From Patescibacteria group bacterium (GTDB lineage Bacteria > Patescibacteriota > Minisyncoccia > Minisyncoccales > PWPS01), in assembly GCA_051745165.1 (NCBI GenBank), contig JBNJDU010000002.1, forward strand, positions 5,479 to 69,478: a stretch of DNA of 64,000 nt. The letters run 5' to 3'. Below the pieces are notes generated by a model that had not been told where the DNA came from, ran no database searches, and saw only the letters and a list, made by a program, of their open reading frames with translations. Shown here piece after piece: positions 1 through 61,657 of the stretch (position 1 is its first letter; each line of letters starts with the position of its first letter). The position numbers and the translations under genes are program-made.

Positions 1-220
1 CGGGGCTGCTATCCCTATTTATATTATTTATTATTAGTTGTACATTATTTGGTGCTCCTGTAATATTTGCCTCGATTGTATAGTCGTTAAAATTCGATAT
101 TTGAAGATCAGGTATAATATCAATATTTGAAATAGAATCTTCTGCTACAGATATAAGAGGAAAGAATATTATTAGTGCTAAAAATAAAAATTTGGCCCTT
201 TTTATTAAGTTGTAATTCAT
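1..220 (-). CDS. Partial CDS (N-terminal part in window): secreted hypothetical protein with signal peptide (MNYNLIKRAKFLFLALIIFFPLISVAEDS...)
   Basis: ATG at 218-220 on the minus strand gives an open frame running off the window start. The N-terminus has a hydrophobic signal-peptide-like segment. It is not in the ORF track because no stop lies inside the window. Confidence 0.35.
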   Translation of the reverse strand, partial: MNYNLIKRAKFLFLALIIFFPLISVAEDSISNIDIIPDLQISNFNDYTIEANITGAPNNVQLIINNINRDSSP

Positions 221-351
221 TAAAGTTTGTTATAAATATTATAAAGATGGCACTATTTCAAATAATTAAATTAAGTTTTTATAATTTAACTCTTATACTA
301 ATATTGCACTAAAAACTAAAATAAAGCAATTAAATTTTATTAACAAAACAA

Positions 352-392
352 AAAACCCAGCTAAGTGCTGGGTGTTTTATATGGCTCCGCGG
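352..392. repeat. 38-bp repeat copy 1: A-tract, hairpin CCCAGCtaagtGCTGGG, T-tract, then tatatggctccgc; followed by a degenerate tRNA-Asn 3'-end-like segment (to ~410)
   Basis: Near-identical to 1156-1196. The downstream segment tgtttt..gctccgcgga..attcgaac resembles the 3' part of the tRNA-Asn gene at 8908-8979. Confidence 0.6.
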
Positions 393-584
393 ATTGGATA
401 AAATTCGAACATACCTATTAAGGCACGGATGGGAATAAGTATTGCTATAAGTATGTAAAAACTACCCTTTTAGCCGACAAAAATAAAGATTTTGTTGCTT
501 TTTAGAATACTTACAGAGGTTTTTAATACTTTAATAACTATTTTTTAACTTAGATTAATTATTACTAAAAAAAAGACCCCCGAA

Positions 585-612
585 AATATACAATCTTACG
601 GGGGCGTAAATA
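585..612 (-). terminator. Rho-independent terminator after ORF 657..1088 (GC-rich hairpin plus T-run on the minus strand)
   Basis: Hairpin acccccg...cgggggc followed by an A-run on the plus strand (T-run on minus). Confidence 0.5.
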
Positions 613-656
613 GCGAGATCAAAATTCTTCAAATTTAGGAATTATTTATTTTTAAA

Positions 657-1088
657 CTAGGAAGGTTCATTAAAGTGCTTTTCAATAGCTAAAGATTGTA
701 TCTCTCTAACATCTTTATCAGACAAAGAATCAATATTAGGTTTGTTGGAAAATAATTCTCTATATGCTTTATTCAGGGCTATAAATCGATTTGATCCAAA
801 AGAAGGGCTAGGTGGAAACTTAAACCATTTAATTCTTTTTTTATAAAACCAAGATAGTTTATTATTTTTATTTGCTTTACTTAAAAATTTTTTAGCTTTA
901 TTTATTTTCCTTTCCATCCTTTCTTTTATCCGCTTATAGGAATTTTTATTAGTTTCCATCACTGACTTATTATTTTTCCAGCGCAAAGAAATTACTCGAA
1001 AATATAATTTTAATCCTAGTAAAATTTCCTCTTGTCGTTTAATCTCTCTTCTAAAATTATCTATAACTGTAGAGTTTTCCTTTGTCAT
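657..1088 (-). CDS. Hypothetical basic protein (143 aa), no recognisable domain
   Basis: From the ORF track; Lys/Arg-rich. It is flanked on both sides by the 38-bp hairpin repeat. Confidence 0.45.
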   Translation of the reverse strand: MTKENSTVIDNFRREIKRQEEILLGLKLYFRVISLRWKNNKSVMETNKNSYKRIKERMERKINKAKKFLSKANKNNKLSWFYKKRIKWFKFPPSPSFGSNRFIALNKAYRELFSNKPNIDSLSDKDVREIQSLAIEKHFNEPS

Positions 1089-1155
1089 AAATTTGCTTTA
1101 TGATTTTTATAAGCATCTTCCTTATTAAATTTTACCACTCTAAAATTTAATAATC

Positions 1156-1196
1156 AAAACTCAGCTAAATGCTGGGTGTTTTATATGGCTCCGCTT
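1156..1196. repeat. 38-bp repeat copy 2 (aaaactcagctaaatgctgggtgttttatatggctccgc)
   Basis: 36/38 identical to copy 1. Immediately followed by a 9-bp perfect inverted repeat (gcttagtag...ctactaagc, 1195-1272) enclosing ~60 nt. Confidence 0.6.
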
Positions 1197-1284
1197 AGTA
1201 GACCAGTTTAGAATATTTGATTGGGGTAAAATAGAAGCAGAAGTAGAATTTTTTCAAACGCTACTAAGCTAGTTTAATTTATTT

Positions 1285-2925
1285 TTACCACTGGAAAATC
1301 CTTAAAAAGAAAGTTTTTATGGAATTGAATATTCTTACAATAAAAATTTCTCTCTCTTTTTCTTCGCTTGTTTTTTCCGTTATTTCTCCTCTTTGCTTTG
1401 GTTGGTTATCTGTTATTATTTTCTCCTCTTTTTCTTCTCCTTTATCATCTTTTTCGCCTTCTTTAGCTTCTACTAATCTTCCATCCTTTTCCTCTTTTTC
1501 TTCTCCGTTATTTTCATATTCTTCACTTTCTACTAACTCTTTATTCTCACTATTTTTGTTACTCTTACCATCTCCACTTTTTTCTTTCATAGTAAAATTT
1601 ACACTTTTACTTGATTTTTCCACCTCAAAACTGCCTTTATAATCTTCATAATTTTCTAATTTAGCAATAAACCAATATTTTCCAGTTTCAAAATTTTCCT
1701 CAACTTCACCATCTAAGCTAGTAGTTATTTCATTAACTTTTCCTGTAAAGTCTTCATAGGAATAAATTTCAATAGAAACACCCTCTAAACCATTTTCCTC
1801 ACTAAAAATCAGGGGGTATTTCTTTTTTTGGAATTCCGCCAAAATAGAGTAATTTCCTTTTATAGCAATGGTTGTATCTTCTAGATTAGGATCAGAAATA
1901 TTATCCACATCACCATTCCAGCCAATAAATTTATAACCCGGTTTAGGCTTTACCTTTAGTTCAATTTCATCTCCCCAGTTGTAATTAAATATTCCTTCTC
2001 CCGGATTAACTATATTTCCACTAGTTCCCGAATTTAATTCTAATTTATGCTTAGTTTCTTCAACAGTAATAGTAGTTGTATAACCAAGTTTTTCAGCTAT
2101 TTGATTAGCTTCATCCTCGTTAAGATTTCCACTGATCTGTATTTGTCCCCCGGAAATTTCTTCTTGAATAGTTGCTCTTTGAATTCTCTCTTCATTTAAA
2201 TAAATAGCAATCGACTTTCCAATATTTTCTTTAGTTAATTCTCGTAAAATTTCCGATCCTTGATTATTAAGTTTAATATGAATTACAGCACGATTAGTCA
2301 TCTCGTTAATATATGGTTCTGCATTGACTATATGCTTTTCATCTAAATTAGTAGAAGTAAAAATGCCTTCAAATGCTATTTCCCAATTATTTATCTCTTC
2401 ATCTAATACTGACTTTTGTTCTTCTGTAATATTTTCAATATCATTTATACTTAAAAGTTCTTTAATTTCTTCCTTTTTAGAATTAATTTTCTCAACTTCT
2501 TCGTCCCTTTTCTCTACTTTAAATTCTAAAGAAATATCTTCAACATCTCTTTTATCAAAAGTATATTTATATTCTTCATCTTTATAAGCTCTGAATTTAA
2601 ACCCAACTATATAATCACCAGGCTCTGTAAATTTAAAATTCCACTTAAATTCCCAACCTCTTCTAGGTTTTTCTATTTTTTTCTTTTTCATAAACTCCTC
2701 TTCAATAGAACCTTGCTTTTCCAAAATTTTAATTAACGGTTCAAATTGCCATTTACTTTCACCTTTATTTTCATCTTCAAGCTCTAAAAAAACTGGGACT
2801 TCTATTTTTTGACCTTGGTTTATAATATCAGGAAATTCCATACTAATACTTTTCTCTACACCAGCAAAAGCTGTTAGTGGGAACAAAAAAGATAGCAGGA
2901 AAATTATTATTTTATTTAAAGACAT
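1285..2925 (-). CDS. Secreted surface protein with signal peptide and a Listeria-Bacteroides (Flg_new-type) repeat; acidic, Lys-rich C-terminus
   Basis: N-terminal signal peptide [21 protein letters not shown]. The motif KPKPGYKFIGWNGDVDN...ILAEF matches the bacterial surface-protein repeat consensus. Confidence 0.55.
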   Translation of the reverse strand: MSLNKIIIFLLSFLFPLTAFAGVEKSISMEFPDIINQGQKIEVPVFLELEDENKGESKWQFEPLIKILEKQGSIEEEFMKKKKIEKPRRGWEFKWNFKFTEPGDYIVGFKFRAYKDEEYKYTFDKRDVEDISLEFKVEKRDEEVEKINSKKEEIKELLSINDIENITEEQKSVLDEEINNWEIAFEGIFTSTNLDEKHIVNAEPYINEMTNRAVIHIKLNNQGSEILRELTKENIGKSIAIYLNEERIQRATIQEEISGGQIQISGNLNEDEANQIAEKLGYTTTITVEETKHKLELNSGTSGNIVNPGEGIFNYNWGDEIELKVKPKPGYKFIGWNGDVDNISDPNLEDTTIAIKGNYSILAEFQKKKYPLIFSEENGLEGVSIEIYSYEDFTGKVNEITTSLDGEVEENFETGKYWFIAKLENYEDYKGSFEVEKSSKSVNFTMKEKSGDGKSNKNSENKELVESEEYENNGEEKEEKDGRLVEAKEGEKDDKGEEKEEKIITDNQPKQRGEITEKTSEEKEREIFIVRIFNSIKTFFLRIFQW

Positions 2926-2946
2926 AAATCTCTCTTTCTTTATTTT

Positions 2947-3858
2947 TTAATATCCAACAGCTTCCGCGCCATATTTAGCTTGCTGACGTGTAAACCCATC
3001 ATATTCGAGTTGTTCAATCAATCCTTCTCTAGAAAATGAAGTGTAATTTAAGTAATCTTCAGCACTTTTTGCTGCCTGCTTATTCCAATCAGCTCCGCAG
3101 TTTTCTGCCCCATACACAGCTTCTTTGTGTGTAAACCCATCATATTCGAGTTGTTCAATCAATCCTTCTCTAGAAAATGAAGTGTAATTTAAGTAATCTT
3201 CAGCACTTCTTAATGCATTCTTTTCACCTAACGTTGTATTGTCTGACTCTGGCTTTGATTCACAAACATTATTTGTGCATTTATACCCATCCGAGCAATT
3301 TCCGTGATCATATACTATTTCACAACTTTCAGTTTCTTCACTAAGCCCGACACACTTTTCTCCCCCGTAAGCAGGTTTAGGATCATCACAAGTTCTAGTT
3401 CTTATTTTCTCTCCCTCAACTCTACTTTCCCCACATTCTAAATCAGGAGGGTTGATTTGACATTCACTCCATTTACTCCATCTACTCCAACCGCCATCAA
3501 TTGGTTTAGGCTTCTCTGGCTCTGATTCAGATTCCTCTTCTATTTTTGTTGTATCTGTTTGTGTCGGCTGCTCTACCTCCTTTACCTCCTCTGTTATTGA
3601 TTCTTCCCGAGATTCTTTATTTTCCACTACATCAGATTCTGATTTAGGAACATCAAGTTCAGGATCTACTTTTTCGGTTGTTTCTGTAGTTATTCCAAAT
3701 AAAACAAAAAATACAATAAATGCTCCACCAAATAATAAACTTGTCTTTTTTCTGGTAACCTTTCCTTTAATAAAGCGTTCAAAGGAAGATGGTTTAATAA
3801 GTCCATAAATTAAAGATCCTAATGAAAGAAGGATTAGAAATAAAAATAAATCATCCAT
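2947..3858 (-). CDS. Membrane-anchored protein (2 TM) with a thrombospondin type-1-like repeat (WSRWSKWSEC...CGES...IRTRTC..PKPAYGGEKCVG) and two tandem Ltp-family (phage superinfection-exclusion lipoprotein, PF07553-like) repeats
   Basis: The tryptophan/cysteine spacing matches the TSR consensus WSxWSxWSxC...CG...RxRxC..PxP..GGxxCxG. The C-terminus has two 47-aa repeats (SAEDYLNYTSFSREGLIEQLEYDGFT...). The underlying DNA is a 141-bp-period tandem repeat. Confidence 0.7.
   Translation of the reverse strand: MDDLFLFLILLSLGSLIYGLIKPSSFERFIKGKVTRKKTSLLFGGAFIVFFVLFGITTETTEKVDPELDVPKSESDVVENKESREESITEEVKEVEQPTQTDTTKIEEESESEPEKPKPIDGGWSRWSKWSECQINPPDLECGESRVEGEKIRTRTCDDPKPAYGGEKCVGLSEETESCEIVYDHGNCSDGYKCTNNVCESKPESDNTTLGEKNALRSAEDYLNYTSFSREGLIEQLEYDGFTHKEAVYGAENCGADWNKQAAKSAEDYLNYTSFSREGLIEQLEYDGFTRQQAKYGAEAVGY
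2988..3221. repeat. Tandem DNA repeat, period 141 bp, 2 copies (~93-bp near-identical core) inside CDS 2947..3858; encodes the duplicated Ltp-like module
   Basis: gtgtaaacccatcatattcgagttgttcaatcaatccttctctagaaaatgaagtgtaatttaagtaatcttcagcactt occurs at 2988 and again at 3129. Confidence 0.8.
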
Positions 3859-3977
3859 AATTTCTCTTTCTTATATTATTTTTAATAATTTCACTACTTT
3901 TCTTATTTAACTATACCACAAAGCAAAATCCAGCTAAATGCTGGGATAAATAAAGAATATTTATCTTAAAATACGGA

Positions 3978-4199
3978 TTAAAAAGTGAACTTATCTGAGG
4001 AATTTAAGTTTTCTTCTCTCTTGATCAGTTGACATAGGGCCTTCTCCCTGGCTTCTAAATCCCTCGGATCTTCCATATCTATCGAAGATCTGTTGTACTT
4101 TATCAGTAAACGCCGAGCTTTCTTCTGCGAAACTCCTAGATATTTGGCCACCCTTTTGTGTCTTCCTTTTAGAGATAGTTGGGCATCTTTCTGAGTCAT
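3978..4199 (-). CDS. Small HTH DNA-binding protein (Fis/IS3-OrfA-like helix-turn-helix; VAKYLGVSQKKARRLLIKY)
   Basis: 73-aa ORF from the track; the HTH motif resembles Fis-type/transposase HTHs. Could be a regulator or a recombination directionality factor of the island. Confidence 0.45.
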   Translation of the reverse strand: MTQKDAQLSLKGRHKRVAKYLGVSQKKARRLLIKYNRSSIDMEDPRDLEAREKALCQLIKREENLNSSDKFTF

Positions 4200-4210
4200 A
4201 ATCTTTAAAT

Positions 4211-4360
4211 TTATTTTTTATTTTTCCTTTTCTCTTTTTTCTTCAAGCCTTCTTTTAAACCTTTCACTATCTTCTCTGTGAACTTTGTCTTTGATTTCTG
4301 ATTTCCTGAAGAGTTTTTTGTAGGTGTTGAGTTAGATTTTTTATTCTTTTTGCTATTCAT
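4211..4360 (-). CDS. Possible small basic protein (49 aa, MNSKKNKKSNSTPTKNSSGNQKSKTKFTEKIVKGLKEGLKKKEKRKNKK), immediately upstream of the HTH gene
   Basis: Hand-translated from the minus strand. Not in the ORF track (short). Low complexity, so it may be non-coding. Confidence 0.2.
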   Translation of the reverse strand: MNSKKNKKSNSTPTKNSSGNQKSKTKFTEKIVKGLKEGLKKKEKRKNKK

Positions 4361-4461
4361 AAATTTTAATTAAATAACATATTTATTATGAGTTTTTTCG
4401 TCTTATAAAAAAGGGAAGCTAAAAGGTATTTTATTAGGAAAGTATTGCAATCAAAACAATC

Positions 4462-5226
4462 TTATAATTCAATTGGTTGCCGTATAGGTACACCCTCTAG
4501 TTCAATAAATTTATCTTTCCAATCCTGACTTCTCATCTCGACTTTTTTGAGTTTTGCATCTTTGGGTATTTCATATGTTGCTTTCTGGTAATTAGTTAAT
4601 CCTGGAGCTATTGTTTCTGTATTAACAAATGTTTGGTCTTCTTGCTTATTAAATTTTCTTCCTTCATCATCTATTAGCTGTCCCAACGACCAACTAACTA
4701 ATATTTCTTCTTTTGTTTTGTTTTTTAATCCGATTTTTATCACCATAAGCTTTCCCTCAGCCCATAATCTATCTTCTCTTTTTATTTTAATAGAATTAAT
4801 TTCAATTTCTTTGCCTAAATTGAACCTATTAATTCCCGTCACTGTTTTTGAAGCTCTTTCTGTTTTATTTTCTAAATAGTCGACTCCTATTGTTGTTCCA
4901 GTTAAAAAAAATAAAGTTAAAACTAAGATAATTATTTTTTTAAATGGCAGAAGTTTGGAACTTTTCTCTTTTCCATACGCAATATAAAGAATAATTCGAT
5001 AATAAATCACGCTTAAGATTAGATATAGTAAAACAGAAAAAGATAAAGAACTCAAGGTTGAAACAAAAAAACTTTCACCACTTGAAGTAGCCACGATTAA
5101 TATAGCGATGAAAATAATTACATCCGAAATATAAATAAGTGACTTTGCCAGTCTATGCCACCATTTATTTTCTAATAAGCGTTCCTCTGCTTTGTTTTTA
5201 TTATTTTCTTCTTCCATCTTTTTCAT
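4462..5226 (-). CDS. Membrane protein (2 TM) with a C-terminal extracytoplasmic beta-rich domain (DUF4352-like)
   Basis: The ORF track gives a hydrophobic N-terminal region followed by a soluble domain. The domain assignment is from memory and weak. Confidence 0.45.
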   Translation of the reverse strand: MKKMEEENNKNKAEERLLENKWWHRLAKSLIYISDVIIFIAILIVATSSGESFFVSTLSSLSFSVLLYLILSVIYYRIILYIAYGKEKSSKLLPFKKIIILVLTLFFLTGTTIGVDYLENKTERASKTVTGINRFNLGKEIEINSIKIKREDRLWAEGKLMVIKIGLKNKTKEEILVSWSLGQLIDDEGRKFNKQEDQTFVNTETIAPGLTNYQKATYEIPKDAKLKKVEMRSQDWKDKFIELEGVPIRQPIEL

Positions 5227-5413
5227 TGTTGGTTTTATTGTTTTTCTTTATTACTTAACTATACCACAAGATAAAACTTTATCTAAGTTATAAGATAATG
5301 GGTAGTTTTTTCGTCTTATAAAAAGGGGGTTAATACCGCTACTATGGTTGCCTATTAATTTACTAAATTGTTGATTTTAATTAGAATAAAATAAGATACT
5401 TAATAAAAATGTA

Positions 5414-6172
5414 ATGAATTCATCTAAAAATCAATCAAAAGAAAAACTTTTAACTTACCTTGATCACTTTATAGAGTCAGATTTTTTTCAAAAAATGGTA
5501 AGAGAAACAAGAGAAGAACTAAACATCCCCAAAAAGGGACTTAATAAATCAAAAGACGAACTTACAAGCTGCTCTTGGGATAAGTATATTTTATATATTC
5601 CGGAAGAATTAAAAGGCGATAAAGGGGAGATATTAAGATTTGTTAACAGTCAAATGGGGAGAGCTTATGAAAAATTTCCTGTAAATGATATCCGGATAAC
5701 TGCTATTTTTACTGTATATATTTATTATAATTTAAAAATATATAAAATTTTAAACAAAACAGACAATATCTGTTCTATTGAGGATATTAAGCAAACAATT
5801 CAGGAAAGAGAAGGATTAAAATTAAATTCTAAGGAAATAAATAGAATGATTGGAACTGATACATACCCTGTAATTTTAAAAATAAACCCTTCTGCAAGTC
5901 AGCGAGATATAGTTTCTTATATTAAAGATAATTGGAAAATTATTAAATATCATCTTGATAAGTATGAAAATAAATCAAAATTAGGAAAAATAAGATCTAG
6001 AGATCCAAAAATTAAAGAAAGAGATCGATTTATTTATAAAAATAGAGAAAAACCATATAAAGAAATAGTTTCTTTGGTTCAAAAAAAATTCCCTGAAGTA
6101 AGCGATTCGATTGATCAAGGTTCTGTTGGAAAAATAATTTCACTTGAGAGACAAAGAAGGAAAGAAGTGTAG
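5414..6172 (+). CDS. Hypothetical basic protein (252 aa), island-borne
   Basis: ORF track. No recognisable motif. Followed by a hairpin terminator at 6210-6236. Confidence 0.45.
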   Translation: MNSSKNQSKEKLLTYLDHFIESDFFQKMVRETREELNIPKKGLNKSKDELTSCSWDKYILYIPEELKGDKGEILRFVNSQMGRAYEKFPVNDIRITAIFTVYIYYNLKIYKILNKTDNICSIEDIKQTIQEREGLKLNSKEINRMIGTDTYPVILKINPSASQRDIVSYIKDNWKIIKYHLDKYENKSKLGKIRSRDPKIKERDRFIYKNREKPYKEIVSLVQKKFPEVSDSIDQGSVGKIISLERQRRKEV

Positions 6173-6209
6173 TACACTTATTTCTTATACAATTTAATAT
6201 ACGTCTTAT

Positions 6210-6236
6210 AACCTGTTATCAAGCAGGTTATTTTTT
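6210..6236 (+). terminator. Rho-independent terminator (aacctgttatcaagcaggtt + T6)
   Basis: Perfect 6-bp stem followed by a T-run, directly after the 5414..6172 stop. Confidence 0.6.
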
Positions 6237-6276
6237 ATGGCTAAAAATTAAATTAGTATTTCAACTGCCAAGAAGT

Positions 6277-6417
6277 ATGGATCTAACCAAACCTTCAATT
6301 AAAGAGCTTCAAAATATCCTCGAAAAGGATTACGGAGTTTCTTTAAACGAAAAAGAAGTTAATTCCTTTGGAGTTTTAGTCCTAAAAATTTTACAAACTA
6401 TAAGTAATAAAAAATAA
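6277..6417 (+). CDS. Possible small protein (46 aa, MDLTKPSIKELQNILEKDYGVSLNEKEVNSFGVLVLKILQTISNKK)
   Basis: Hand-translated. Its stop lies 2 nt before the next ORF start (6420). Not in the ORF track. Confidence 0.2.
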   Translation: MDLTKPSIKELQNILEKDYGVSLNEKEVNSFGVLVLKILQTISNKK

Positions 6418-6419
6418 AT

Positions 6420-6854
6420 ATGAACAATGAAGGGCCAAATAAAATTATGCTAAGGAAAGGAGTTGATAACAATCCTGAAGATGCTTTTAAAGGCTTAGAC
6501 CATCCCTCTAAAAAAACAAAAGAAAATGCTCAAAATGAAATAAAAAAGTTTACAAAAAGAAATTGGCTTGCGTACAGTCCAGACTTAGCAAAAATTCTTA
6601 ATTCTGTAAAAGCGGGAATTTTTCTCTCACAACTCATCTATTGGCACGGAAAAGGTGCTGATTCTGAAAAGTTTTACAAGACGATAAAAGAATTAAAGGA
6701 AGAAACAGAATTAAGCAAAGGAGAGCAATATAGAGCTCAAAAAATATGTGAGAAAAAAGATTTAATCGAGGTTACTTATGACAAGATTCCACCAAAGAGA
6801 CACTACAAAATTAAAATTAAAAAGATAAAAGAATTATTAAAAGGCATTGATTAG
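6420..6854 (+). CDS. Winged-helix DNA-binding protein, DnaD/phage replication-organizer-like (weak call)
   Basis: The segment GIFLSQLIYWHGKG...FYKTIKELKEETELSKGEQYRAQKICEKKDLIEV resembles replication-initiator/DnaD-type wHTH domains. No decisive motif. Confidence 0.35.
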   Translation: MNNEGPNKIMLRKGVDNNPEDAFKGLDHPSKKTKENAQNEIKKFTKRNWLAYSPDLAKILNSVKAGIFLSQLIYWHGKGADSEKFYKTIKELKEETELSKGEQYRAQKICEKKDLIEVTYDKIPPKRHYKIKIKKIKELLKGID

Positions 6855-7209
6855 TGAATGTAGGCGGTTATTATATGAATTTTATCAAGCATTTAAAGGT
6901 TTTAAAATAAGTCATATATTACAGAGATTACCTTTCATAGATTACTTACAGAGCTTTCTCTTTACAAGAGAGGATTCCGTAAATATAGACATTTACGAAA
7001 TCCAAAAATATACCTAGAAAGAAAAATTAAATAATAAAGAAATTTATTTATTTACCTTGAAGTGCTATAATAAAAGTAGACATTGCCATTATTATTTTGA
7101 GAGTAGGAAGGGGCGTTTCTGTTTTGTTCTCGAAAGAGGCAATGTCTAGCAGAAGCGTCCCTTTTTGTTTATTAGCTTGCTCTTACTATATTTATTAAAT
7201 TTTTATTTT

Positions 7210-8934
7210 ATGATTTCAAATAAAAAAGCGGACAAATATTTTATGTATTGTCGTAAATCAAGTGAATCTGAGGATCGACAAATACAATCTATAGACGCAC
7301 AAAAAAGAGAGCTTAAGAAAATAGCAAAGAAGGATAATTTGAATGTAGTGGATATATTAACTGAATCAGCTTCAGCAAAGGAGCCAGGAAGACTAGTATT
7401 TAATAATATGATTAAGAGAATAGAAGATGGAGAAGTTGATGGTTTATTAGTGTGGAAAGTTAATCGATTAGCTAGAAATGCTCGTGATGGAGGAACAGTT
7501 AAGTGGCTTTTACAAGATGGAGTAATAAAGCACATAAAAACATTTTCAGGAAATCATTACCCCGAAGATAATGCTGTTGTTTTATCTGTAGAAATGGGTA
7601 TGTCTGCACAGTACTCAAGAGATTTGAGTACTGACACGAAAAGAGGTTTACGTGAAAGATATGAGAGAGGTTATCCGAACGGACAAGCTCCCATTGGCTA
7701 TAAAAATGATTTAAGTAAAAAGCCTGGTAATAGAGGATGGAAAGTTAATGAAGATCGCTTTCCTTTAGTTAAAAAGCTTTTAAAGTTGTATTTAACAGGA
7801 GATCATTCTGTTAGTAGTCTCAAAAAGATAGCCAATGATAAGTTTAATTTAACTACTCCAGAGAGAAAGAATAAAGGAGGTAAAAAGATTTCTAGATCAT
7901 ACATTCATCATATGCTACAAAATCCAGTGTATGCAGGCTTCTTTCTTGTAAACGGCAGTAAAAGATATGAGTTAAACCCTAAAGTACCTACAATGATAAC
8001 GGAAGAAGAATATAATAAAATTCAAGATATTCTAAGCGATAAAAATAGATCTAGAACTTCCAGTTTAGAAAAAAGCTTTCCTTACAAAGAAGGTGGGAGG
8101 ATGATTTGTGGTTATTGTGGAGGGGTAGTCTCTGCAGAAAGAAAAAGCCAAGTAATTTGTTCTAATTGTAATAAAAAGTTTTCCAGGATAAGTAAAGATA
8201 AGTGCCCGAGCTGTGGAACTGAAATAAGTAAAATGGAGGATCCTACCTTTTTGGATTATAAATACTATCACTGTACTAAAAATAAAGACTCAGAGTGTCC
8301 TAGTCCGTATATAAGAGAAGAAAAGATAAATGAGGAGGTGAGCACTTTCCTTAAGAATAATTTGGAGATATCCCCTTCCTTGCGTGAATGGTGTGTTAAA
8401 AATGTAAAACAACTAGAAAAGGATAAGAGGCAACGGATTAAAAAACAAAAAGATAAATGGGAGGAAGAGTTAAAAGAAAAGGAAGAAGAGTATGACCGTC
8501 TTTTAAGAATGCAATTAAAGGAAGATTTTGATATGGATAAAGAGGATTTTAATAGACTAAAAAACGAAATAAAATCAGAAAAGAATGCTGTTAAGAGTAA
8601 ACTGAAAGAGTTAGAAAGCAATTCTGATAATATAGAAAAGAAACTAAAAAAGACACTTGATATCACTACAGGAGTTTCAAATATATTTAAAAAAGGAACC
8701 AGTGAAGAAAAGAAAGAAGTTTTATCAAAAACTGCTTCGAACTTAACTGTTAAGAAGGATGAAATCCAAATTTCAAGTCAAAACCACTTCTCTATCTTAT
8801 TGGAGGCTCTTTCGGCAGTTAAAGATGAAAACCCCTCATTCGAACCCCGAAATAGTACCCCTTTTAACGGAAAAACCGAGGTTGAAGCCTCGGCTTGTCC
8901 TGTTTTGCTCCGCGGACAGGATTCGAACCTGTGA
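7210..8934 (+). CDS. Large serine recombinase (resolvase/invertase N-terminal catalytic domain YCRKSSESEDRQ, recombinase domain, Zn-ribbon, coiled-coil), i.e. a phage-type integrase
   Basis: The ORF track frame starts at 7165, but the catalytic Ser motif and spacing favour the Met at 7210. The 3' end of the ORF reads through the tRNA-Asn terminator into the tRNA gene (overlap 8908-8934). Confidence 0.85.
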   Translation: MISNKKADKYFMYCRKSSESEDRQIQSIDAQKRELKKIAKKDNLNVVDILTESASAKEPGRLVFNNMIKRIEDGEVDGLLVWKVNRLARNARDGGTVKWLLQDGVIKHIKTFSGNHYPEDNAVVLSVEMGMSAQYSRDLSTDTKRGLRERYERGYPNGQAPIGYKNDLSKKPGNRGWKVNEDRFPLVKKLLKLYLTGDHSVSSLKKIANDKFNLTTPERKNKGGKKISRSYIHHMLQNPVYAGFFLVNGSKRYELNPKVPTMITEEEYNKIQDILSDKNRSRTSSLEKSFPYKEGGRMICGYCGGVVSAERKSQVICSNCNKKFSRISKDKCPSCGTEISKMEDPTFLDYKYYHCTKNKDSECPSPYIREEKINEEVSTFLKNNLEISPSLREWCVKNVKQLEKDKRQRIKKQKDKWEEELKEKEEEYDRLLRMQLKEDFDMDKEDFNRLKNEIKSEKNAVKSKLKELESNSDNIEKKLKKTLDITTGVSNIFKKGTSEEKKEVLSKTASNLTVKKDEIQISSQNHFSILLEALSAVKDENPSFEPRNSTPFNGKTEVEASACPVLLRGQDSNL

Positions 8935-8979
8935 CATCCTCCTTAACAGGGAGGCGTTCTACCGCTGAACTACCGCGGA
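8908..8979 (-). tRNA. tRNA-Asn (anticodon GTT)
   Basis: Cloverleaf folded by hand: acceptor TCCGCGG/CCGCGGA, anticodon loop cTGTTAa, T-loop GGTTCGAATCC. No encoded CCA. A hairpin plus T-run terminator lies 3' of it. Confidence 0.85.
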
Positions 8980-9001
8980 ATATTTGGTTTTAAGCGTTAT
9001 T

Positions 9002-9029
9002 ATTTTAGCACAATAACAAATTCAGTCAA
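9002..9029 (-). promoter_or_regulatory. Sigma70-like promoter for tRNA-Asn (TTGACT-16nt-TAAAAT on the minus strand)
   Basis: -35 at 9024-9029 and -10 at 9002-9007 (reverse complement), ~22 nt upstream of the tRNA 5' end. Confidence 0.5.
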
Positions 9030-9049
9030 CTTTAATTTTTTACTAAAGA

Positions 9050-9076
9050 TATGTGTGAGAGGTTAAACCTCTCACA
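9050..9076 (-). terminator. Perfect hairpin tgtgtgagagg-ttaaa-cctctcacaca downstream of rpoD
   Basis: 11-bp perfect stem. A second inverted repeat (agttaagggtta..taaccctttaact) overlaps the rpoD stop. Confidence 0.5.
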
Positions 9077-9106
9077 CAGTAATAGTTTAAAGTTAAGGGT
9101 TAAAGC

Positions 9107-10321
9107 TTAGTAACCCTTTAACTTTTTAACGTCATCTTTATTTCTTATTTTCTCTAATGCTTTAGCTTGAATCTGTCTGATACGCTCCCTAGTAACGTCA
9201 AAAACCTGCCCTACTTCCTCTAAGGTATGAGTTACGCCGTCTTCAAGCCCAAACCTCATGGAGAGTATTTTCTTCTCTCTATCGTCCAAATCAGCCATTA
9301 CCTCGTGCAATCTTTCTTTTAATAATTTTCTTCCCGCATCCACGGATGGTGGAGTAGTTTCTTCATCTTCAATAAAGTCAGCTAATGTAGAATTATCTTC
9401 ATCATCACCAACCGGTGCTTCAAGTGAAGTTGCGGTTTGATAAATTTTTATGATGTGCCTAACTTTATCGACTTCAAGCCCCATTTCAGCAGCTACTTCT
9501 TCTGCAGAAGGTTCTCTTCCTAAAGATTGGAATAAGTCCTTTCTTACTTTTGTATACTTAGAAATCTTTTCTACCATGTGGACCGGAATTCTAACTGTTC
9601 TGGACTGATCAGCTAAAGCTCTGTTTATTGATTGTCTAATCCACCAAGTTGCATAAGTAGAAAATTTATAACCTCTTCTCCAGTCAAATTTTTCAACGGC
9701 TCTAAAGAGACCAAGATTACCTTCTTGGATTAAATCTAAAAAGCTAAGTTTTGGAGATCGTCCAATGTATTTTTTAGCAATAGAAACTACTAATCTAAGA
9801 TTAGCTCTAATCATTCTTCTTTTTGCCTCCATGTCTTCTTTTTCAATCCGTTTTGCAAGCTCTACTTCTTCTTCAGCACTAAGTAAAGGTTCTTTTGAAA
9901 TCTCTTTTAAATAAGTTTGAATAGAGTCAATCTTGTTTGGGGTTATTCCTCCCATTCCTTCTTGATCTTCATCCTCTAAAAGGCTTCTTTCTTGCTTTAC
10001 TTGTATATTGCTTTTTTCTAATCTCTTAACTACTTTTTCTAATTTTTCTGAATCTTCTTCTGCCTCCGGATAAAACTCAAAAATATCTGAGTGGTATAAA
10101 ACTCTTCCTCTGTTTCTTCCCATCTTCATTAACTCTCTCATCTTTTTAGGAAGCTTTTTCTGATTATTGGGCTTTTTCTCTTCCTCATCGTCTTCGTCGT
10201 CCTTATCTTCATCTTCTTCTTTTTCTTCCTCTTCATCTTCAGTCTCTTCTTCAGTATCTTCATCTTCATTTTCTTCCTTCTCCTCCTCTTTTTTATTTTT
10301 TTTATTTTTTTTCTTAGTCAT
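9107..10321 (-). CDS. rpoD: RNA polymerase sigma-70 factor RpoD (with acidic N-terminal extension)
   Basis: Regions 2.x-4.x are conserved ([42 protein letters not shown]). Confidence 0.9.
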
Positions 10322-12032
10322 GACTATTTTCTTGAAGTTTTTTAGATAATTTATAAGCTTCTTGAGTTAGTTTCTTAAGCTGCTCAGTATTGTTTTGATT
10401 TTCTGCTTTTTTAATTTCCTTTTGAATTTTTTTAAGTTTAAATTTAATTTTTTCTTTTTTAATTTCTTTTAAGCAATTTTTAACTTCCTCTTTTTCATTA
10501 CCCACTCCTCTTTCTGGTCGAAGAGCAAAATAATCTATCGTCTTTTTCATTTTTTCATCTTTTTCCTCGTCATTTTTAATTGCTTGCAATATATTTTTAC
10601 CTCTTCTTGAAAATATTTCAAAGTCATCTATTAAACCTATCTTTTCTGGATCTTTAGCTACTAGCGATATAACTCTTTCTTCTAAAACTGCTTTTCTTGA
10701 TTTCTTTCTTTGCTCTCTTTTTTTATTATTTTTAGCTGTTTTTCGCTTATTTTTTTTACTTTTAATACTTTTTAATTGATCAGACACCGCCTTTTCACTA
10801 ATATCCAACTTATCCGCTAATTGCTTAACCCAGTGTGATTGCTCTATGCGGTTAGGTATTTTTTTAATTATAGGGAGAAGCTCTTTAGCAATTTTCTTTT
10901 TTTCTTTAGATTTAGACAAGTCTCTTCCAGAAAAAGCGTCTTCGAAATAAAACTTCATAATTTCTTTAGCGTTTTCAACTGCAGACTCCCATTTACTCTT
11001 GTCTTCTTTAACTAAATCAGCAGGATCCATGTCATTAGGTAAAGTAATAACCTTTACATCAAAATCAAGTTTTCTAGCCATTTCGATTCCTTTTTTAGTT
11101 GCCGAAGCCCCAGCATCATCCATGTCGAAAGCGGTAAACAAATTATGAGTATATCGAGATAATATTTTTAATTGCTGCTCTGTTAATGCAGTTCCTGAAG
11201 TAGAAATAACATTTTTAAAACCAGCCTGATGGGCCATTATAACGTCCGTATAACCCTCTACTAAAATACATTGATCTTGCCTTCTTATTTCTACCTTTGC
11301 CTTATCTAACCCATAAAGAACTTTACTTTTGTCGTATAGAGGGGTTTGAGGACTATTAATATACTTCGCTGTGTCATCATTATCACCAAAGATACGTCCT
11401 CCAAAAGCTATTGGATTTGCAGAAGGATTGTTGATGGGAAACATGATTCTTCCTCTGAATCTATCATAAGAATGATCATTTTTCTTGATTGCTAATCCAG
11501 CCTCAACAATTTCTTTTCTTTTATATCCTTTTGAAATCAAAAATTTGGAAAGAGCTTGCCAAGAATCAGGACTATATCCTAACCTCCACTTATTAATTGA
11601 CTCCTCAGAAATTCCCCGTCCAATTAAGTATTCCTTAGCTTCTTTACCTTTTTTTGAAGCTTCTAGCTGTTTTTGGAAAAACTTAGTAGCCAAATCATAC
11701 ATTTCAGAAAACTTCTGTTTTTTACTAGCCTTTTTAGGATCTCTTTTCTTTATATCAACTCCTGCTTTTTTAGCTAATATCTTCAAAGCTTCATAAAACT
11801 CAACACCTTCAATCTTCATAACAAAGTCAAACATATCTCCACCATCATTGCAACCACCAAAACATCTCCAAGACTGTCTGGAGGGAGAAACAAAAAATGA
11901 AGGCGTTTTCTCTGCATGAAAAGGACAAAGGGCTCTCAAGTTGGAGCCCACCTTCTCCAGCTCAATATATTCTTTAATAACATCCTCTATATCAAGCCGT
12001 GATTTAATCTCTTCAACTGTATCTTCGGACAT
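10314..12032 (-). CDS. dnaG: DNA primase DnaG
   Basis: Zinc-finger [20 protein letters not shown] and TOPRIM domain ([25 protein letters not shown]). Confidence 0.9.
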
Positions 12033-12211: not shown

Positions 12212-13534
12212 ATGAAAATTTTATTTTTATACGACTTCCCTCTTTGGGGTAACGGATCAGGTGCCTATTTGAGAAGTTTGGTGAAAGAATTTGTAGACAT
12301 GGGGCACGAAGTAGGAATTATCGCTCCTGAAGAGAGAAGATTTTTAGAAAGCAAAATTAAGCAATATAAAGTAGATGCTCCTCAGATTCCGGTATTTAAT
12401 AGTCACCCGGAATTAAAAGGGGCTAAAAGATACTCTGAACTCTCTCCTAGAGAGATTACTGAAATATATGAAGCCTACCTGGAAACAACCATGGAGGCTA
12501 TCTTTAATTTTGATCCTGATGTGTTACATGTAAACCATTTGGCTCTTATCACCTGGCCAGCACGATATGTGTCAGCGCTTATGGATACAAAGTACATTAT
12601 TACTGTTCACGGAAGTTGCCTTACAAACACTTTAGAGAATAAAGAATATTTACCTTTAACCGAAGATGCGGTAAGGCAAGCAAAAGCAGTAACAATGGTA
12701 AGTAAATCTACCAAAGACAGATTTTTTGATCATTTTAATGAAGACGAAGTGACTAGATCAAGAATAATTCCTGGAGGTGTTGATATTAGCAACTTTCCAA
12801 AAGAAGTAGACACTTCTCATATTGAAGATAAATATAATTTGAAAGGTAAGAAGGTTGTCTTTTTTGCTGGCCGCCTTACTTCTGAAAAGGGAATGGAGTA
12901 TTTAGTAAAAGCCGCAGACAAAATTGATGGGGAGATATTTATTGCCGGAGAAGGAGCAATGCGGAAAGATTTAGAAAAAATGATTGCTAAAAATAATCTT
13001 GGAAATGTTCACCTTTTAGGATATTTATTAACAGAAGAACTTATTCCTTTCTATTATCGTGCCGATGTTTTTGTCTCTCCTTCAGTAGTAGCTGAGGCCT
13101 TTGGTTTAACTATAACGGAAGCAATGGCAGCTAGAACCCCAGTAATCGCAACTAAAAAGGGTGGGATTCCATTAATTGTAAAAGATGGTAAAAACGGTCT
13201 TTTTGTAAAAGCGAAAAGTGCTGACGATATAGCTAGAAAGTGTAACAAACTACTTAATGATGATGAGCTTAGAGAAAAGATGGGTAAACGAGCAAGGAAA
13301 GACATTGAAGAAAAGTTTACCTGGCGTAAAGTTGCTGAGAGATTTGAATTTTTATATAAAATAGTCACTGGTGAATACTATAAAGAAAGAAAAAGAATAA
13401 GAGAAAAGGAGAAAGAATATAAGAAAATGAAAAAGAAAGATCTAATCAAAAAGGCAAAAGAAAAAGATTTAGATTTTAAAAAGTCAGCCACCAAAAAAGA
13501 GCTAATCAAAAAGCTCATCCAAAAAATAAAATAA
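12212..13534 (+). CDS. Glycosyltransferase family 4 (GT-B fold; EAFGLTITEAMAARTPVIAT motif) with Lys-rich C-terminal tail
   Basis: Conserved GT1/GT4 C-terminal motif and overall architecture. Confidence 0.8.
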   Translation: MKILFLYDFPLWGNGSGAYLRSLVKEFVDMGHEVGIIAPEERRFLESKIKQYKVDAPQIPVFNSHPELKGAKRYSELSPREITEIYEAYLETTMEAIFNFDPDVLHVNHLALITWPARYVSALMDTKYIITVHGSCLTNTLENKEYLPLTEDAVRQAKAVTMVSKSTKDRFFDHFNEDEVTRSRIIPGGVDISNFPKEVDTSHIEDKYNLKGKKVVFFAGRLTSEKGMEYLVKAADKIDGEIFIAGEGAMRKDLEKMIAKNNLGNVHLLGYLLTEELIPFYYRADVFVSPSVVAEAFGLTITEAMAARTPVIATKKGGIPLIVKDGKNGLFVKAKSADDIARKCNKLLNDDELREKMGKRARKDIEEKFTWRKVAERFEFLYKIVTGEYYKERKRIREKEKEYKKMKKKDLIKKAKEKDLDFKKSATKKELIKKLIQKIK

Positions 13535-13538
13535 ATAT

Positions 13539-14135
13539 ATGACTATCGTCATTTTGGGGGGCGGAATTGATGACGGAAAACTCCCTGAGCAAGTAAAAAA
13601 ACGATTAGATAAAGCGATCAACGTCTCTAAAGAAAGAGGTGTTGATCGTTTTTTAGTTTGTGGTAGATGGAGCTTTCTTTTTACTGATTCGGAGACCCCT
13701 TCTACTACAGAGGCAAGACTGATGAAAAAATACTTAATAAACCAAGGGGTTAACGAGAATAATATATTTTTAGAGGAGAAATCAATGGACACGATAAGTA
13801 ACGCCTACTACGCTAAAACTGAATACTTTTTACCAGAAAAAGAAAAAGGTGCTATTGTAATTAGCTCTAATTACCATATCCCTAGAGTGAAATATATTTT
13901 CGAAAAAACATTCGGCGAAGAGTATAGCTTAGAGTTTATAGGAATTGAAACTGATAATTCTCAAAAACTACTCAAACGACAAGAAAGACTTTTAAAGGAA
14001 ATGAGAAAGTTAACTAGTGATATGAAAAATGGTGATCATGAATTTTTAAAAACTTTGTTTTTTAATGCTGATTATTATAAAAGAAAACGTCCTGCTTGGG
14101 TAAAAAACAAAACAAGCAAAGGAAAAATAAAATGA
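13539..14135 (+). CDS. DUF218/YdcF (SanA/ElyC-like) family protein
   Basis: N-terminal IVILGGGI...G motif and domain length typical of DUF218 envelope-biogenesis proteins. Confidence 0.55.
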   Translation: MTIVILGGGIDDGKLPEQVKKRLDKAINVSKERGVDRFLVCGRWSFLFTDSETPSTTEARLMKKYLINQGVNENNIFLEEKSMDTISNAYYAKTEYFLPEKEKGAIVISSNYHIPRVKYIFEKTFGEEYSLEFIGIETDNSQKLLKRQERLLKEMRKLTSDMKNGDHEFLKTLFFNADYYKRKRPAWVKNKTSKGKIK

Positions 14136-15247
14136 ATAAAAATATAAAAATTGTCTTTTACTGTAGCTGGGGTGGTTTTGGTCATGTTGCAAGAAGTTAC
14201 TCAATAATAAGCAAACTACCAAAGGAAGGTAGCTACACTGTAGCTACTCCGGAAGATTGGCCCTTTAAAAAGCCTAATAAAAACTTTAAGTATAAAAAGC
14301 TTCATAAACCAAAAAGCAGAATCAGATTAGAAGGGGAAGAGCTAATAGTCCAAGATTATGAAGAAGGCGCTCAAGATGTAAAAGGATATAAAAAACATTT
14401 ACACCAATTTATAGATCTTTTAAAACAAGAGGACCCGGACTTAGTTGTTGTTGATAATCCAGCTGAAGTTTCTTTAATTACTAAAATTTTAGGATATAAA
14501 ACTGTCGTAATGTACGAAACCTTGAACACAAATGACCTGCGCTGGAGAATGGCTTGGAAAAGTGCTGATAAATTGCTCGCCCCTTATCCTGAAGAATTTC
14601 TTAAAGAAATAGATTTTCCATACTTAGAAAATACCTATTGCTCAGGCGGCTTTACTCGATTTGAATCTAATCCAGAATCGAAAAAGATAACTCAAGAAAA
14701 AGCTAGAGAAAAGCTAAACCTTTCTTCAGAGGAAAAATATATACTTATAACTGTTGGTAAAGGAGAGACGGCTAAAAGTTTAATCAAAAAAATGCTTTCA
14801 AATTTAGCACAAGTAGACTACAAACTTTTATTAGCCTATCCTAATCCAGATCAAGAAATAAAAAATCTAGTTCAAAAATATAATAAACTAGAAGTTATTT
14901 CCGGAGTATTTGAAGAAATGTATCTTTACCTTATCAGTAGTGATATTATAGTTGCTGGAGCTGGCTATAACTCAGTTATGGAAGCTTTCTCTTTTCAAAA
15001 ACCAACTATTTCCATACCACTAAGTAATATTTATAACGAACAAATCTTCAAAGCGAAAATATTTTCTAAACTAGGTGCTTTGAGTTATGTTGATCCAGAT
15101 AACCCAGAACTAGTCTATGACAGAATAAAGGAATTAGAAAAAAAGAATAATGCAGAAGAAATGATAAAAATTCAAAAAAGAATAGTGGATGGAAGTGGAT
15201 CCAAAAGAGCTGCAGATAAATTAGTAGAACTAATAAAAAATGACTAA
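14132..15247 (+). CDS. GT-B glycosyltransferase, MurG/GT28-like (FYCSWGGFGHVARS nucleotide-sugar binding motif)
   Basis: ORF track frame. Start moved to the Met at 14132 to avoid an overlap with the upstream gene. Gly-rich N-terminal loop and C-terminal AGAGYNSVMEA motif resemble MurG-type transferases. Confidence 0.5.
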   Translation: MNKNIKIVFYCSWGGFGHVARSYSIISKLPKEGSYTVATPEDWPFKKPNKNFKYKKLHKPKSRIRLEGEELIVQDYEEGAQDVKGYKKHLHQFIDLLKQEDPDLVVVDNPAEVSLITKILGYKTVVMYETLNTNDLRWRMAWKSADKLLAPYPEEFLKEIDFPYLENTYCSGGFTRFESNPESKKITQEKAREKLNLSSEEKYILITVGKGETAKSLIKKMLSNLAQVDYKLLLAYPNPDQEIKNLVQKYNKLEVISGVFEEMYLYLISSDIIVAGAGYNSVMEAFSFQKPTISIPLSNIYNEQIFKAKIFSKLGALSYVDPDNPELVYDRIKELEKKNNAEEMIKIQKRIVDGSGSKRAADKLVELIKND

Positions 15248-16415: not shown

Positions 16416-16425
16416 TGGATTTAAA

Positions 16426-61523: not shown

Positions 61524-61657
61524 AAATACCCTCTTTGAAGAAGTCCGCGGAGCTGATTTAGCAAGGTTTTTGGCCTTGCCAAAATAAATCAGCGAGCGAA
61601 CAACCTCCGAATCACCGCTGGTGATTCTTGAGAGGTGTTTCTTCAAAAGAGGGTATT
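61524..61657 (+). repeat. Copy B of the conserved ~135-nt structured element (outer stem ataccctctttgaagaag / cttcaaaagagggtat; inner hairpins ctgatttagcaagg..ccttgc..taaatcag and gaatcaccgctggtgattc); candidate ncRNA or MITE
   Basis: Complete copy. Homologous to A (reverse complement) and C, with compensatory substitutions. It abuts the tRNA-Glu 3' end (10 nt away). Confidence 0.6.

Follow-up and report, generated by a model that had tools for sequence, protein, structure and literature searches.

Serine integrases are prized tools for genome engineering. In the mycobacteriophages BPs and Brujita, which show integration-dependent immunity, attP lies in the 3′ end of a gene and integration swaps the C-terminal tail of its product, and the accretion of ICESt1 and CIME elements yields tandem arrays through site-specific insertion beside a resident element. 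For the large serine recombinases (LSRs), it is established that the zinc-ribbon motif lies 5 bp nearer the centre in attB (bp 11–19) than in attP (bp 16–24) (Rutherford 2013, PMC3783163). A survey with TIGER placed 14 of 297 predicted serine-integrase islands (4.9%) in t(m)RNA genes, cases that were called unreported before and in need of experimental proof (Mageeney 2020, PMC7192596). Archaeal tyrosine integrases of the SSV ("suicidal") type have their attachment (att) site within the integrase open reading frame (ORF), and integration into a tRNA alters the gene (PMC7253208), while composite staphylococcal cassette chromosome (SCC) elements, e.g. PsiSCC + SCC-ccrC + SCCmec, occur at rlmH (bioRxiv 10.1101/336396). 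In the present work we have analysed a window of 64,000 nucleotides (nt) from a contig of a Patescibacteria metagenome-assembled genome (all positions are window positions), in which the gene for an LSR ends within a tRNA-Asn gene. Our analyses indicate that positions 394–8916 very probably represent a composite island that arose by LSR-mediated, site-specific insertion at the extreme 3′ end of this tRNA-Asn. LSR integrases and tRNA islands are each well known; a tRNA-targeting clade with attP in its own gene is not found in the literature that we searched, which held no paper on this recombinase clade, on serine-recombinase elements at tRNA-Asn in the candidate phyla radiation (CPR), or on a serine integrase ORF that spans attP.

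A large serine recombinase gene overlapping tRNA-Asn

Protein families were assigned with Pfam, PHROG, NCBIfam and PADLOC, and tRNAs were called with ARAGORN and Rfam. The ORF at the tRNA-proximal edge of the island is an intact LSR, for which recombination activity is predicted. Its start and length agree with those of a metagenomic homologue that is 94% identical (P0001), and it matches the Pfam families Resolvase (PF00239; 64.9 bits, cut-off 23.3; 1.1e-17) and Recombinase (PF07508; 33.7 bits, cut-off 21.1; 4.7e-8), as well as PHROG 95, "integrase" (4e-64). The catalytic motif YCRKSSESEDRQ is present, as reported in a preliminary description of this DNA, which had identified the protein as an LSR with a catalytic Ser motif. 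For the zinc ribbon and long coiled-coil also described there, the evidence is mixed: the score for Zn_ribbon_recom (PF13408), 23.0 bits, is slightly below the cut-off of 25.3, yet eight invariant Cys residues (C300–C363) are followed by a charged helical stretch of ~100 amino acids (aa). In an alignment of the window LSR with 30 homologues at 37–50% identity (31 sequences), residues Y13, R15, S17, D22, Q24 and R61 are invariant, and all 46 invariant residues of the family, including the catalytic Ser, are present in the window LSR, which is itself the reference of the alignment. The profile of these 31 members matches, among the structures in PDB, the integrases of SPbeta (4e-17) and A118 (C-terminal domain structure 4kis, E 6e-5), and also those of TP901-1 and phiC31; the resemblance to integrases of known structure is distant (E 4e-17 to 6e-4) and concerns chiefly the catalytic domain.

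The LSR frame reads through the hairpin ccgagg-ttgaag-cctcgg (8876–8893) and continues antisense into tRNA-Asn, where its stop codon (8932–8934) is located 28 nt inside the gene as called by ARAGORN, or 27 nt, the distance given earlier, as called by Rfam. The tRNA is without an intron, and rpoD and dnaG are found on its 5′ side. The order on the tRNA side is tgtttt, GCTCCGCGGA (8907–8916), cagga and TTCGAAC (8922–8928), the last of which belongs to the T-loop. The segment of the ORF that precedes the tRNA (the P arm; Table 1) has a minimum free energy (MFE) of −19.2 kcal/mol, and its hairpin is predicted to serve the tRNA as terminator once the element is integrated.

The C-terminal tail conserved in the family alignment has the form ...FEP-x(10-12)-KTEVFASVCPTLLRG(QDSNL). 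When it is read as DNA, KTEVFAS corresponds to the A-run and hairpin, LLRG to ttgctccgcgga, and DSN to gattcgaac. In 33 of 43 family loci FEP is encoded by TTCGAACCT, without variation at any synonymous position; this sequence, a further copy of the T-loop-like motif in direct orientation, is typically located ~69 nt before CTCC and may be a candidate accessory binding site.

Left-hand sites and unoccupied junctions in relatives

The preliminary description had placed attL and attR at the left edge of the island and at the tRNA, and the two sites are indeed found there, with the 10-nt core GCTCCGCGGA common to 384–393 and 8907–8916. This 10-mer has 3 copies in the 64 kb as against 0.30 expected with one mismatch allowed. 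The order at the left site is tgtttt, atatg, GCTCCGCGGA, ttggataaaa and TTCGAAC (404–410), and the hairpin at 355–373 is terminator-like on both strands, with a T-run on each. The proposal that 370–410 is a degenerate copy of the tRNA 3′ region with two insertions had to be abandoned: attL and attR have only GCTCC(GCGGA) in common across the crossover, and 370–410 is not a tRNA duplicate because its left part is a displaced host terminator and its right part the P′ half-site of the element. The 5-nt "insertion" in the left site is best read as the difference in spacing between attP and attB.

The left site also encodes a recombinase tail. In the frame ctc-cgc-gga, 385–438 is translated as LRG-LDKIRTYLLRHGWE and a stop, and the sequence LDKIRTYLL that it contains is the C-terminal tail type of family members without a tRNA junction. 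When a profile was made from tails at other loci alone and run over the complete set of 3,523 window ORF fragments, it matched a single place, nt 385 (independent E-value 2e-5; next best 1.5). A second left copy (1156–1216) shares with the first its hairpin and the TGTTTTATATGGCTCCGC stretch (32/33 identical), and the sequence that follows differs; this inner copy encodes LR-LVDQFRIFDWGKIEAEVEFFQTLLS and a stop, a second tail type that is common to the loci L097, L087 and L061 and to the unsplit homologue P0004. A search of the window for the pattern CTCC-N15-T[TC][CA]GAA[CT] gives just two matches, at 385 and 1189, each of them on the LSR strand. Since the left sites encode tails of the family, they represent B|P′ junctions, which places attP inside the LSR gene; attP is accordingly predicted in the 3′ end of this gene, and integration would swap the tail. 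The second left copy, and a third hairpin at 3930–3945, had been overlooked in the preliminary description.

Two other candidates were considered and rejected. The left sites are not the 3′ ends of deleted LSR genes, inasmuch as the family profile found no relic in 1–7200 (best independent E-value 0.027, low complexity). The third copy of GCTCCGCGGA, at 61544, is not a secondary att site; it is without the motif at +10/+15 and falls within a structured element that is unrelated. This element (61527–61657, minus strand, ~135 nt) is Y-shaped and located directly 3′ of tRNA-Glu (61666–61741), has an MFE of −65.4 kcal/mol (z −9.3 in comparison to shuffles) with the GCTCCGCGGA copy within a stem, and matches no Rfam family.

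Close relatives, which were chosen as contigs with an RpoD 92–96% identical to that of the window, provide examples of the site in its unoccupied state. In two of them (L083 and L096; RpoD 94–96% identical) tRNA-Asn directly abuts a terminator block that corresponds to the blocks at 355–393 and 1121–1194 of the window, where tRNA and block are 7.7–8.5 kb apart. The tRNA-Asn of L083, which is 75/76 identical to that of the window and has no recombinase beside it, is directly preceded by aaaaaCCCGGCTAAAATAGCTGGGtttaatctgt, a hairpin homologous to CCCAGCTAAGTGCTGGG of the window, and the junction there consists of the hairpin, 10 nt and GCTCCGCGGACAGGAATCGAACC. In L096, a block 92% identical to 1121–1159 is followed by the hairpin and joined to GCTCCGCGGACAGGATTCGAACC / GCTCCGCGGACAGGATTCGAACCTGTGACATCCTCCTTA. 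These empty junctions identify the blocks at 320–393 and 1121–1194 as B arms that were split from the tRNA by insertion, and they support the integrated island with the LSR at its tRNA-proximal edge that had been proposed from the window, for which empty sites had been suggested as a check, although the other flanking genes differ. The attL of L097 corresponds to the inner copy of the window (84% identical over 151 nt) with other cargo beyond it, and L098, from another sample, has the same LSR/tRNA junction at 94.4% nucleotide identity.

Probable targeting of tRNA 3′ ends across the recombinase family

A search of 185,579 species genomes yielded at least 561 relatives of the LSR, and 80 of these loci were fetched. 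In 32 of the 80, the 3′ end of the LSR ORF is antisense to a called tRNA, viz. tRNA-Asn (24 loci), tRNA-His (4), tRNA-Gln (3) and tRNA-Trp (1), and 13 further loci have the T-arm geometry without a tRNA call, so that ends in tRNAs or in uncalled T-arm-like sequence are found in at least 45 of the 80 loci. One locus of the T-arm type that was fetched separately, L088, has a tRNA-like 3′ half followed by a match to a group I intron (11751–11963; RF00028, 34.6 bits, E 6e-7). The target tRNA-Asn appears to be interrupted behind the anticodon loop by a group I intron in L088 and L096 (5620–5720), and probably also in some of L006, L023, L028, L052, L057, L058, L060, L064, L074 and L079; ARAGORN makes no call for tRNA-Asn of this intron type. 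Members that are not joined to a tRNA run on as ...LLRG-LDDVRTYLL.... The P|P′ geometry (+15) is seen in the unsplit non-CPR members L013, L014, L018, L019, L037, L041 and L042, and extra conserved C-terminal extensions occur in some members (RKAERAAALIYAHF in L037 and L041; IYHFF..CMS.SF in L010 and L013 and, more loosely, in L042).

The distance from GCTCC to TT[CA]GAA[CT] is 15 nt in every P′ arm that was examined as against 10 nt in the tRNA. When the 80 loci (1.30 Mb, both strands, called tRNAs masked) were scanned for all spacings, a spacing of 15 gave 21 matches on the LSR strand and 0 on the other, and every other spacing gave 0–6. Application of the published numbering (PMC3783163) sets the crossover at about gctcC|Gc, in agreement with the limit of identity between attL and attR, and in other attL/attR pairs the block of identity shrinks to (G)CTCC(G). 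In about 21 of 25 loci a hairpin is predicted from the 45 nt of the ORF that precede the core (mean MFE −16.0 kcal/mol, compared with −5.0 in control windows from these ORFs; p 6e-7), and the stems are unrelated in sequence among loci; it is the folding of the P arm that is conserved, rather than the sequence of the stem and hence the peptide.

A complete attL/attR pair is also present in L080, where the sites are 9.9 kb apart. Arrays of P′ arms are found in L028 (four), in L061 and L075 (three each, one being the locus's own unsplit junction), in L080 (two) and in L023 (two or three), and the terminator block occurs twice in L086. The four P′ arms of L028 (949–3600; LQTWEDVRM...) are nearly identical, ~0.5–1 kb apart, cassette-like, and located upstream of the recombinase element; the first two intervals between them hold one minus-strand gene each, of 153 or 247 aa.

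Among the findings that, according to the preliminary description, would undercut the att interpretation was one that the left site belongs to a dispersed repeat unrelated to the tRNA. The hairpin does occur three times within 1–4 kb, and two of its copies have TGTTTTATATGGCTCCGC in common, so that the left site belongs to a small repeat family; however, this family is the att/terminator block itself, which supports the att interpretation instead of undercutting it. That the left site is a dispersed terminator repeat with a chance likeness to the tRNA, and no att site, is scarcely credible. The repeat and its hairpin have no copy in the remaining 60 kb of the window, a homologue abuts the intact tRNA in both L083 and L096, and the results for the tail profile and for the spacing of 21 sense and 0 antisense matches already contradict a chance repeat.

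Proposed mode of integration

In the mechanism that we propose, the zinc ribbon of the LSR would read the T-loop motif as the motif of the B′ half-site, the 5-bp offset would tell attB and attP apart, and strand exchange would take place within CTCC (tRNA nt 70–73). The element would supply only the last few nt of the tRNA and a new terminator, and the last ~15 LSR codons would encode both the core and this terminator's hairpin. The ORF of the excised circle would run into a P′ arm and end as ...LLRG-LDKIRTYLLRHGWE or ...LLR-LVDQFRIFDW..., each with its stop, and after integration it would end antisense in the tRNA as ...LLRG-QDSNL. The array would most likely result from repeated insertion at one tRNA, each unit being closer to it than its predecessor.

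Several observations weigh against an island formed in this manner. The third block of the window (3899–3945) has no core and no recognisable P′ arm, and the left arms are without an inverted TTCGAA motif, unlike canonical, quasi-symmetric LSR sites. To our knowledge, canonical LSRs do not integrate into attR, and the formation of an array by successive insertion therefore needs non-canonical behaviour or another route. Unsplit members of the family are located on large chromosomes outside the CPR, more than 10 kb from any tRNA, which makes the tail motif older than the targeting of tRNAs. The changes between the distal tails of the window and L097 are mostly non-synonymous, and both the translation of the tail and a role for it as protein are hypothetical. 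No excised circle or attP junction was found in DNA scans of IMG/VR and the JGI metagenomes; the predicted attP, in its a and b forms, and the left-arm block are both absent from these collections, and the close relatives are in ENA, outside the scans. Lastly, in the relatives with empty sites the flanking genes are different and the orientation of the tRNA to rpoD is reversed, so that there is no clean relative with the same flanks minus the island.

In the window, tRNA-Asn and the island are co-directional with rpoD-dnaG (8907–12032), whereas L083 and L096 have the tRNA and rpoD in convergent orientation, as do, judging from the direction of attL, L087 and L097. Between rpoD and the tRNA, each relative has genes of its own (NUDIX/GDSL; 296 aa; 520 + 290 aa; 805 aa), and the region is a hotspot of rearrangement. 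No homologue was found for the left-flank gene, which was searched with its 73-aa N-terminal fragment. Four relatives (L081, L082, L084 and L085) have no tRNA-Asn in the fetched sequence adjacent to rpoD, and the contigs of L086 and L087 end before any tRNA, so that synteny is of limited use here.

Another possibility is that the island is a fossil, with an LSR that has been kept or domesticated and att-like remnants incapable of recombination. The lack of an excised form in the IMG/VR and JGI scans, a composition nearly like that of the host, the degenerate motif of the second P′ arm (TTAGAAT) and one decayed junction are in keeping with such a state. We consider it unlikely, in view of the full set of invariant residues in the LSR (with the above proviso that it is the alignment reference), the 10/10 identity of the outer core, and the perfect motif of the P′a arm at the exact spacing; furthermore, the gene content at the tRNA varies among relatives with RpoD 92–96% identical, which points to recent turnover.

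Going beyond an LSR island of an otherwise ordinary kind, the clade might constitute a distinct serine-recombinase system marked by half-site asymmetry and a built-in tail switch, a suggestion that we regard as doubtful. In such a system only the right half of a site would be specific (T-loop motif at +10/+15), the left half being a generic terminator plus GCTCC; attL would be attP-like and attR attB-like, occupied tRNAs would stay open to insertion, and small modules without a recombinase, holding one to a few genes (P′ arm, gene or genes, promoter, hairpin, core), would accumulate in cassette fashion on the side away from the tRNA. The C-terminal swap, together with the exposure of the LSR 3′ end to convergent transcription of the tRNA, could act as a switch of directionality or expression, for which the frozen TTCGAACCT ("FEP") would provide an accessory binding site.

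Composite layout and gene content of the island

The features of the window are summarized in Table 1. A block of promoter plus hairpin precedes each minus-strand unit (320–393, 1121–1194 and 3899–3945), and a promoter alone is present at 5247–5276. The left-arm blocks are near-identical although their modules carry different cargo. The recurring promoter-like motifs noticed in the preliminary description are confirmed: TTGTGGTATAGTTAA is found exactly at 3907 and 5255 and GTTTTTTCGTCTTATAAAAA at 4392 and 5305, and neither has an exact copy elsewhere in the window.

Table 1. Positions and characteristics of features of the window, including the proposed island and its candidate att sites.
Feature	Position	Strand	Characteristics
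Outer attL B arm	320–383		Decayed promoter block, A-run, hairpin 355–373, tgttttatatg
Outer attL core GCTCCGCGGA	384–393		Reverse complement of tRNA nt 65/66–74 (3′ acceptor strand + discriminator)
P′a arm	394–438	+	TTCGAAC 404–410, 15 nt after GCTCC; LSR frame codes LDKIRTYLLRHGWE and stop
Module 1	394–1194		One 143-aa ORF, no recombinase (0.8 kb)
143-aa basic ORF	657–1088	−	Only ORF of at least 50 aa in the 394–1194 module
Inner attL B arm	1121–1187		Promoter block, A-run, hairpin 1159–1177, tgttttatatg
Inner attL core GCTCCGC (7-nt version)	1188–1194		Repeat and pattern searches
P′b arm	1195–1272	+	TTAGAAT 1208–1214, 15 nt after GCTCC; codes LVDQFRIFDWGKIEAEVEFFQTLLS and stop
Module 2	1195–3945		SecDF-P1/InlB-repeat surface protein and Ltp-repeat membrane protein
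546-aa secreted surface protein (o546)	1285–2925	−	SecDF P1-head and InlB B-repeat; Pfam 1.4e-21, 2.2e-10
303-aa membrane protein (o303)	2947–3858	−	Two Ltp repeats, thrombospondin-like Cys-rich segment; Lipoprotein_Ltp 4.1e-27, PHROG 4980 1.9e-31
Third block	3899–3945		Promoter (TTGTGGTATAGTTAA, minus strand) and hairpin 3930–3944/3945
Recombinase unit	~3946–8916		o73, DUF4352 protein, 252-aa protein, DnaD/O-like protein, 56-aa ORF, LSR
73-aa ORF (o73)	3978–4199	−	Faint excisionase-type helix-turn-helix (HTH); HTH_17 E 0.081, below threshold
254-aa membrane protein (o254)	4462–5226	−	DUF4352; Pfam 1.4e-5, PHROG 806 3.7e-8
Divergent promoter region	5247–5328		Second copies of both repeated motifs; motif search
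252-aa protein (o252)	5414–6172	+	37% identical homologue directly after the unsplit LSR gene in L069
144-aa winged-helix protein (o144)	6420–6854	+	DnaD/phage O-like; PHROG 9773 1.7e-19
56-aa ORF (o56)	6847–7017	+	No family match
LSR	7210–8934	+	574 aa from ATG at 7210; open frame from 7165
Third copy of T-loop-like motif, TTCGAACCC	8839–8847	+	Codes invariant FEP; 69 nt before CTCC
P arm	8870–8906		A-run, hairpin 8876–8893, cttgtcctgtttt; inside LSR ORF, codons KTEVEASACPVL
attR core GCTCCGCGGA	8907–8916		Identical to 384–393
tRNA-Asn(GTT)	8907–8979 (Rfam start 8908)	−	ARAGORN; Rfam 73 bits
B′ half-site	8917–8935	−	tRNA T-arm and T-loop; TTCGAAC 8922–8928

The cargo assigned earlier to an Ltp/TSP1-like membrane protein, a large surface protein (with the SecDF-P1 head and InlB repeats) and a DnaD/O-like protein is recovered with Pfam and PHROG, whereas the HTH protein has only a faint match (HTH_17 E 0.08); o73 is a candidate regulator or directionality factor. 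The membrane protein o303 is similar to superinfection-exclusion proteins, homologues of o144 are found 200–800 nt upstream of the LSR gene in L025, L027, L031 and L052, and the 143-aa ORF of module 1 has no match in Pfam, PHROGs, NCBIfam or PADLOC.

The island is composite, and the unit that moves may be 8.5, 7.7 or about 5 kb in length. It is entirely possible, if not our preferred interpretation, that only ~3946–8916 (o73, o254, o252, o144, o56 and the LSR) is the element, and that o546/o303 and the 143-aa ORF are older modules, resident or of the host, while the attL sites at 384 and 1188 record earlier events. Homologues of o546 (54% identical) and o303 (75% over the C-terminal 98 aa) are located in L096 outside the unoccupied block–tRNA junction, showing that the modules of this type occur independently of the recombinase unit. 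The third block, to the right of o303, stands where L096 has its terminator block joined to the tRNA, and only o252 and o144 accompany the LSR in other loci. At this block, the o546/o303 module and the recombinase unit probably meet in a junction that has decayed. On the other hand, the absence of a GCTCC core and a P′ arm at the 3946 junction means that a ~5-kb unit could not now be excised independently, while intact attL sites able to pair with attR exist at 384 and 1188. The larger composite island, 394–8916, is the preferred interpretation.

The GC content of the island is 0.302 as against 0.334, with tetranucleotide z scores of up to 2.35, and a host region at 14–18 kb is equally deviant (GC 0.297, z 2.5). 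A comparison of composition had been suggested for this locus; the island does deviate, albeit weakly and no more than this one host region, and the deviation was too weak for use as a boundary marker. A glycosyltransferase/teichoic-acid-type cluster with a B12-binding radical SAM enzyme is present at 12212–18021 and takes in this deviant host region.

A prophage or phage satellite with a phage-type serine integrase was also considered, as PHROG matches exist to an integrase, an Ltp superinfection-exclusion-like protein and an O-like replication protein. Such an origin is very unlikely, since no capsid, portal, terminase, tail or lysis gene was found with Pfam or PHROG among the nine ORFs of the island, its length is only 8.5 kb, and relatives of the LSR number 6 in 2.9 M viral contigs of IMG/VR versus the at least 561 in cellular genomes; the lifestyle of a satellite is nevertheless conceivable. 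An inovirus or other prophage was likewise rejected for want of a morphogenesis ATPase and structural genes, and a defence island for want of any PADLOC match. No relaxase, coupling protein or type IV secretion component of the island was matched by Pfam or NCBIfam.

Significance and comparison with known systems

A large, mostly Patescibacteria clade that inserts systematically at tRNA 3′ ends would overturn the view that LSRs almost never use tRNAs. If this is true, natural attP/attB pairs governed by a predictable logic would be available by the dozen, at tRNA-Asn, tRNA-His, tRNA-Gln and tRNA-Trp, in which the 5-bp offset is visible in natural sequences. A terminal stretch of the gene, about 50 bp long, would serve at once as coding sequence, tRNA terminator and recombination site, and this compact layout makes tail swapping, transcriptional interference and site asymmetry testable as means of directionality control. 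For the ultra-small CPR genomes, whose mobile elements are poorly known, the locus would represent a hypervariable hotspot for the exchange of surface-protein genes.

The recombinase resembles those of A118/LI, SPbeta (SprA/YokA), phiC31, Bxb1 and TP901-1 in the order of its parts, viz. catalytic domain, recombinase domain, putative Cys-rich zinc ribbon and long helical insert, and at the level of sequence its sites resemble those of phage-type LSRs in that they are short, have a small common core, and carry the motif 5 bp farther out in attP (PMC3783163). It differs from phage-type LSRs in its target, which is a tRNA 3′ end in place of a protein-coding gene or intergenic site, in the location of attP inside the integrase ORF, in having arrays of sites, and in lacking an inverted left-arm motif and phage genes. 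With the TIGER cases it shares a large serine integrase that uses a tRNA gene as attB. In comparison to those cases, the habit is dominant in this clade (at least 45 of 80 loci, four tRNA species) and always directed to the same sublocation, and the gene overlaps the site; the T-loop as the recognised motif would give a rationale for the choice of target. Overlap of the clade with the 14 cases is possible.

As in the SSV-type integrases, the recombination site is located within the integrase ORF, which is changed by integration into a tRNA. However, the two families are unrelated, and whereas integration breaks the SSV gene into two large pieces and abolishes its function, in the present case no more than the last 14–26 codons would be exchanged, leaving all catalytic and DNA-binding domains intact. 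The layout is like that of SCC composites in that units with and without a recombinase are arranged in tandem at the 3′ end of a conserved gene, with repeated att cores between them. It is unlike SCC in that the recombinase is not a Ccr protein (NCBIfam CcrA 58.7 bits, cut-off 700; CcrB 45.3, cut-off 900; CcrC 40.1, cut-off 900), the target is a tRNA and not rlmH, the host belongs to the Patescibacteria, and the site is inside the recombinase ORF. The BPs/Brujita phages and the ICESt1/CIME elements, in contrast, use tyrosine recombinases, and the gene whose tail is swapped in BPs/Brujita is that of the repressor, whereas in the island described here it is that of the integrase itself.

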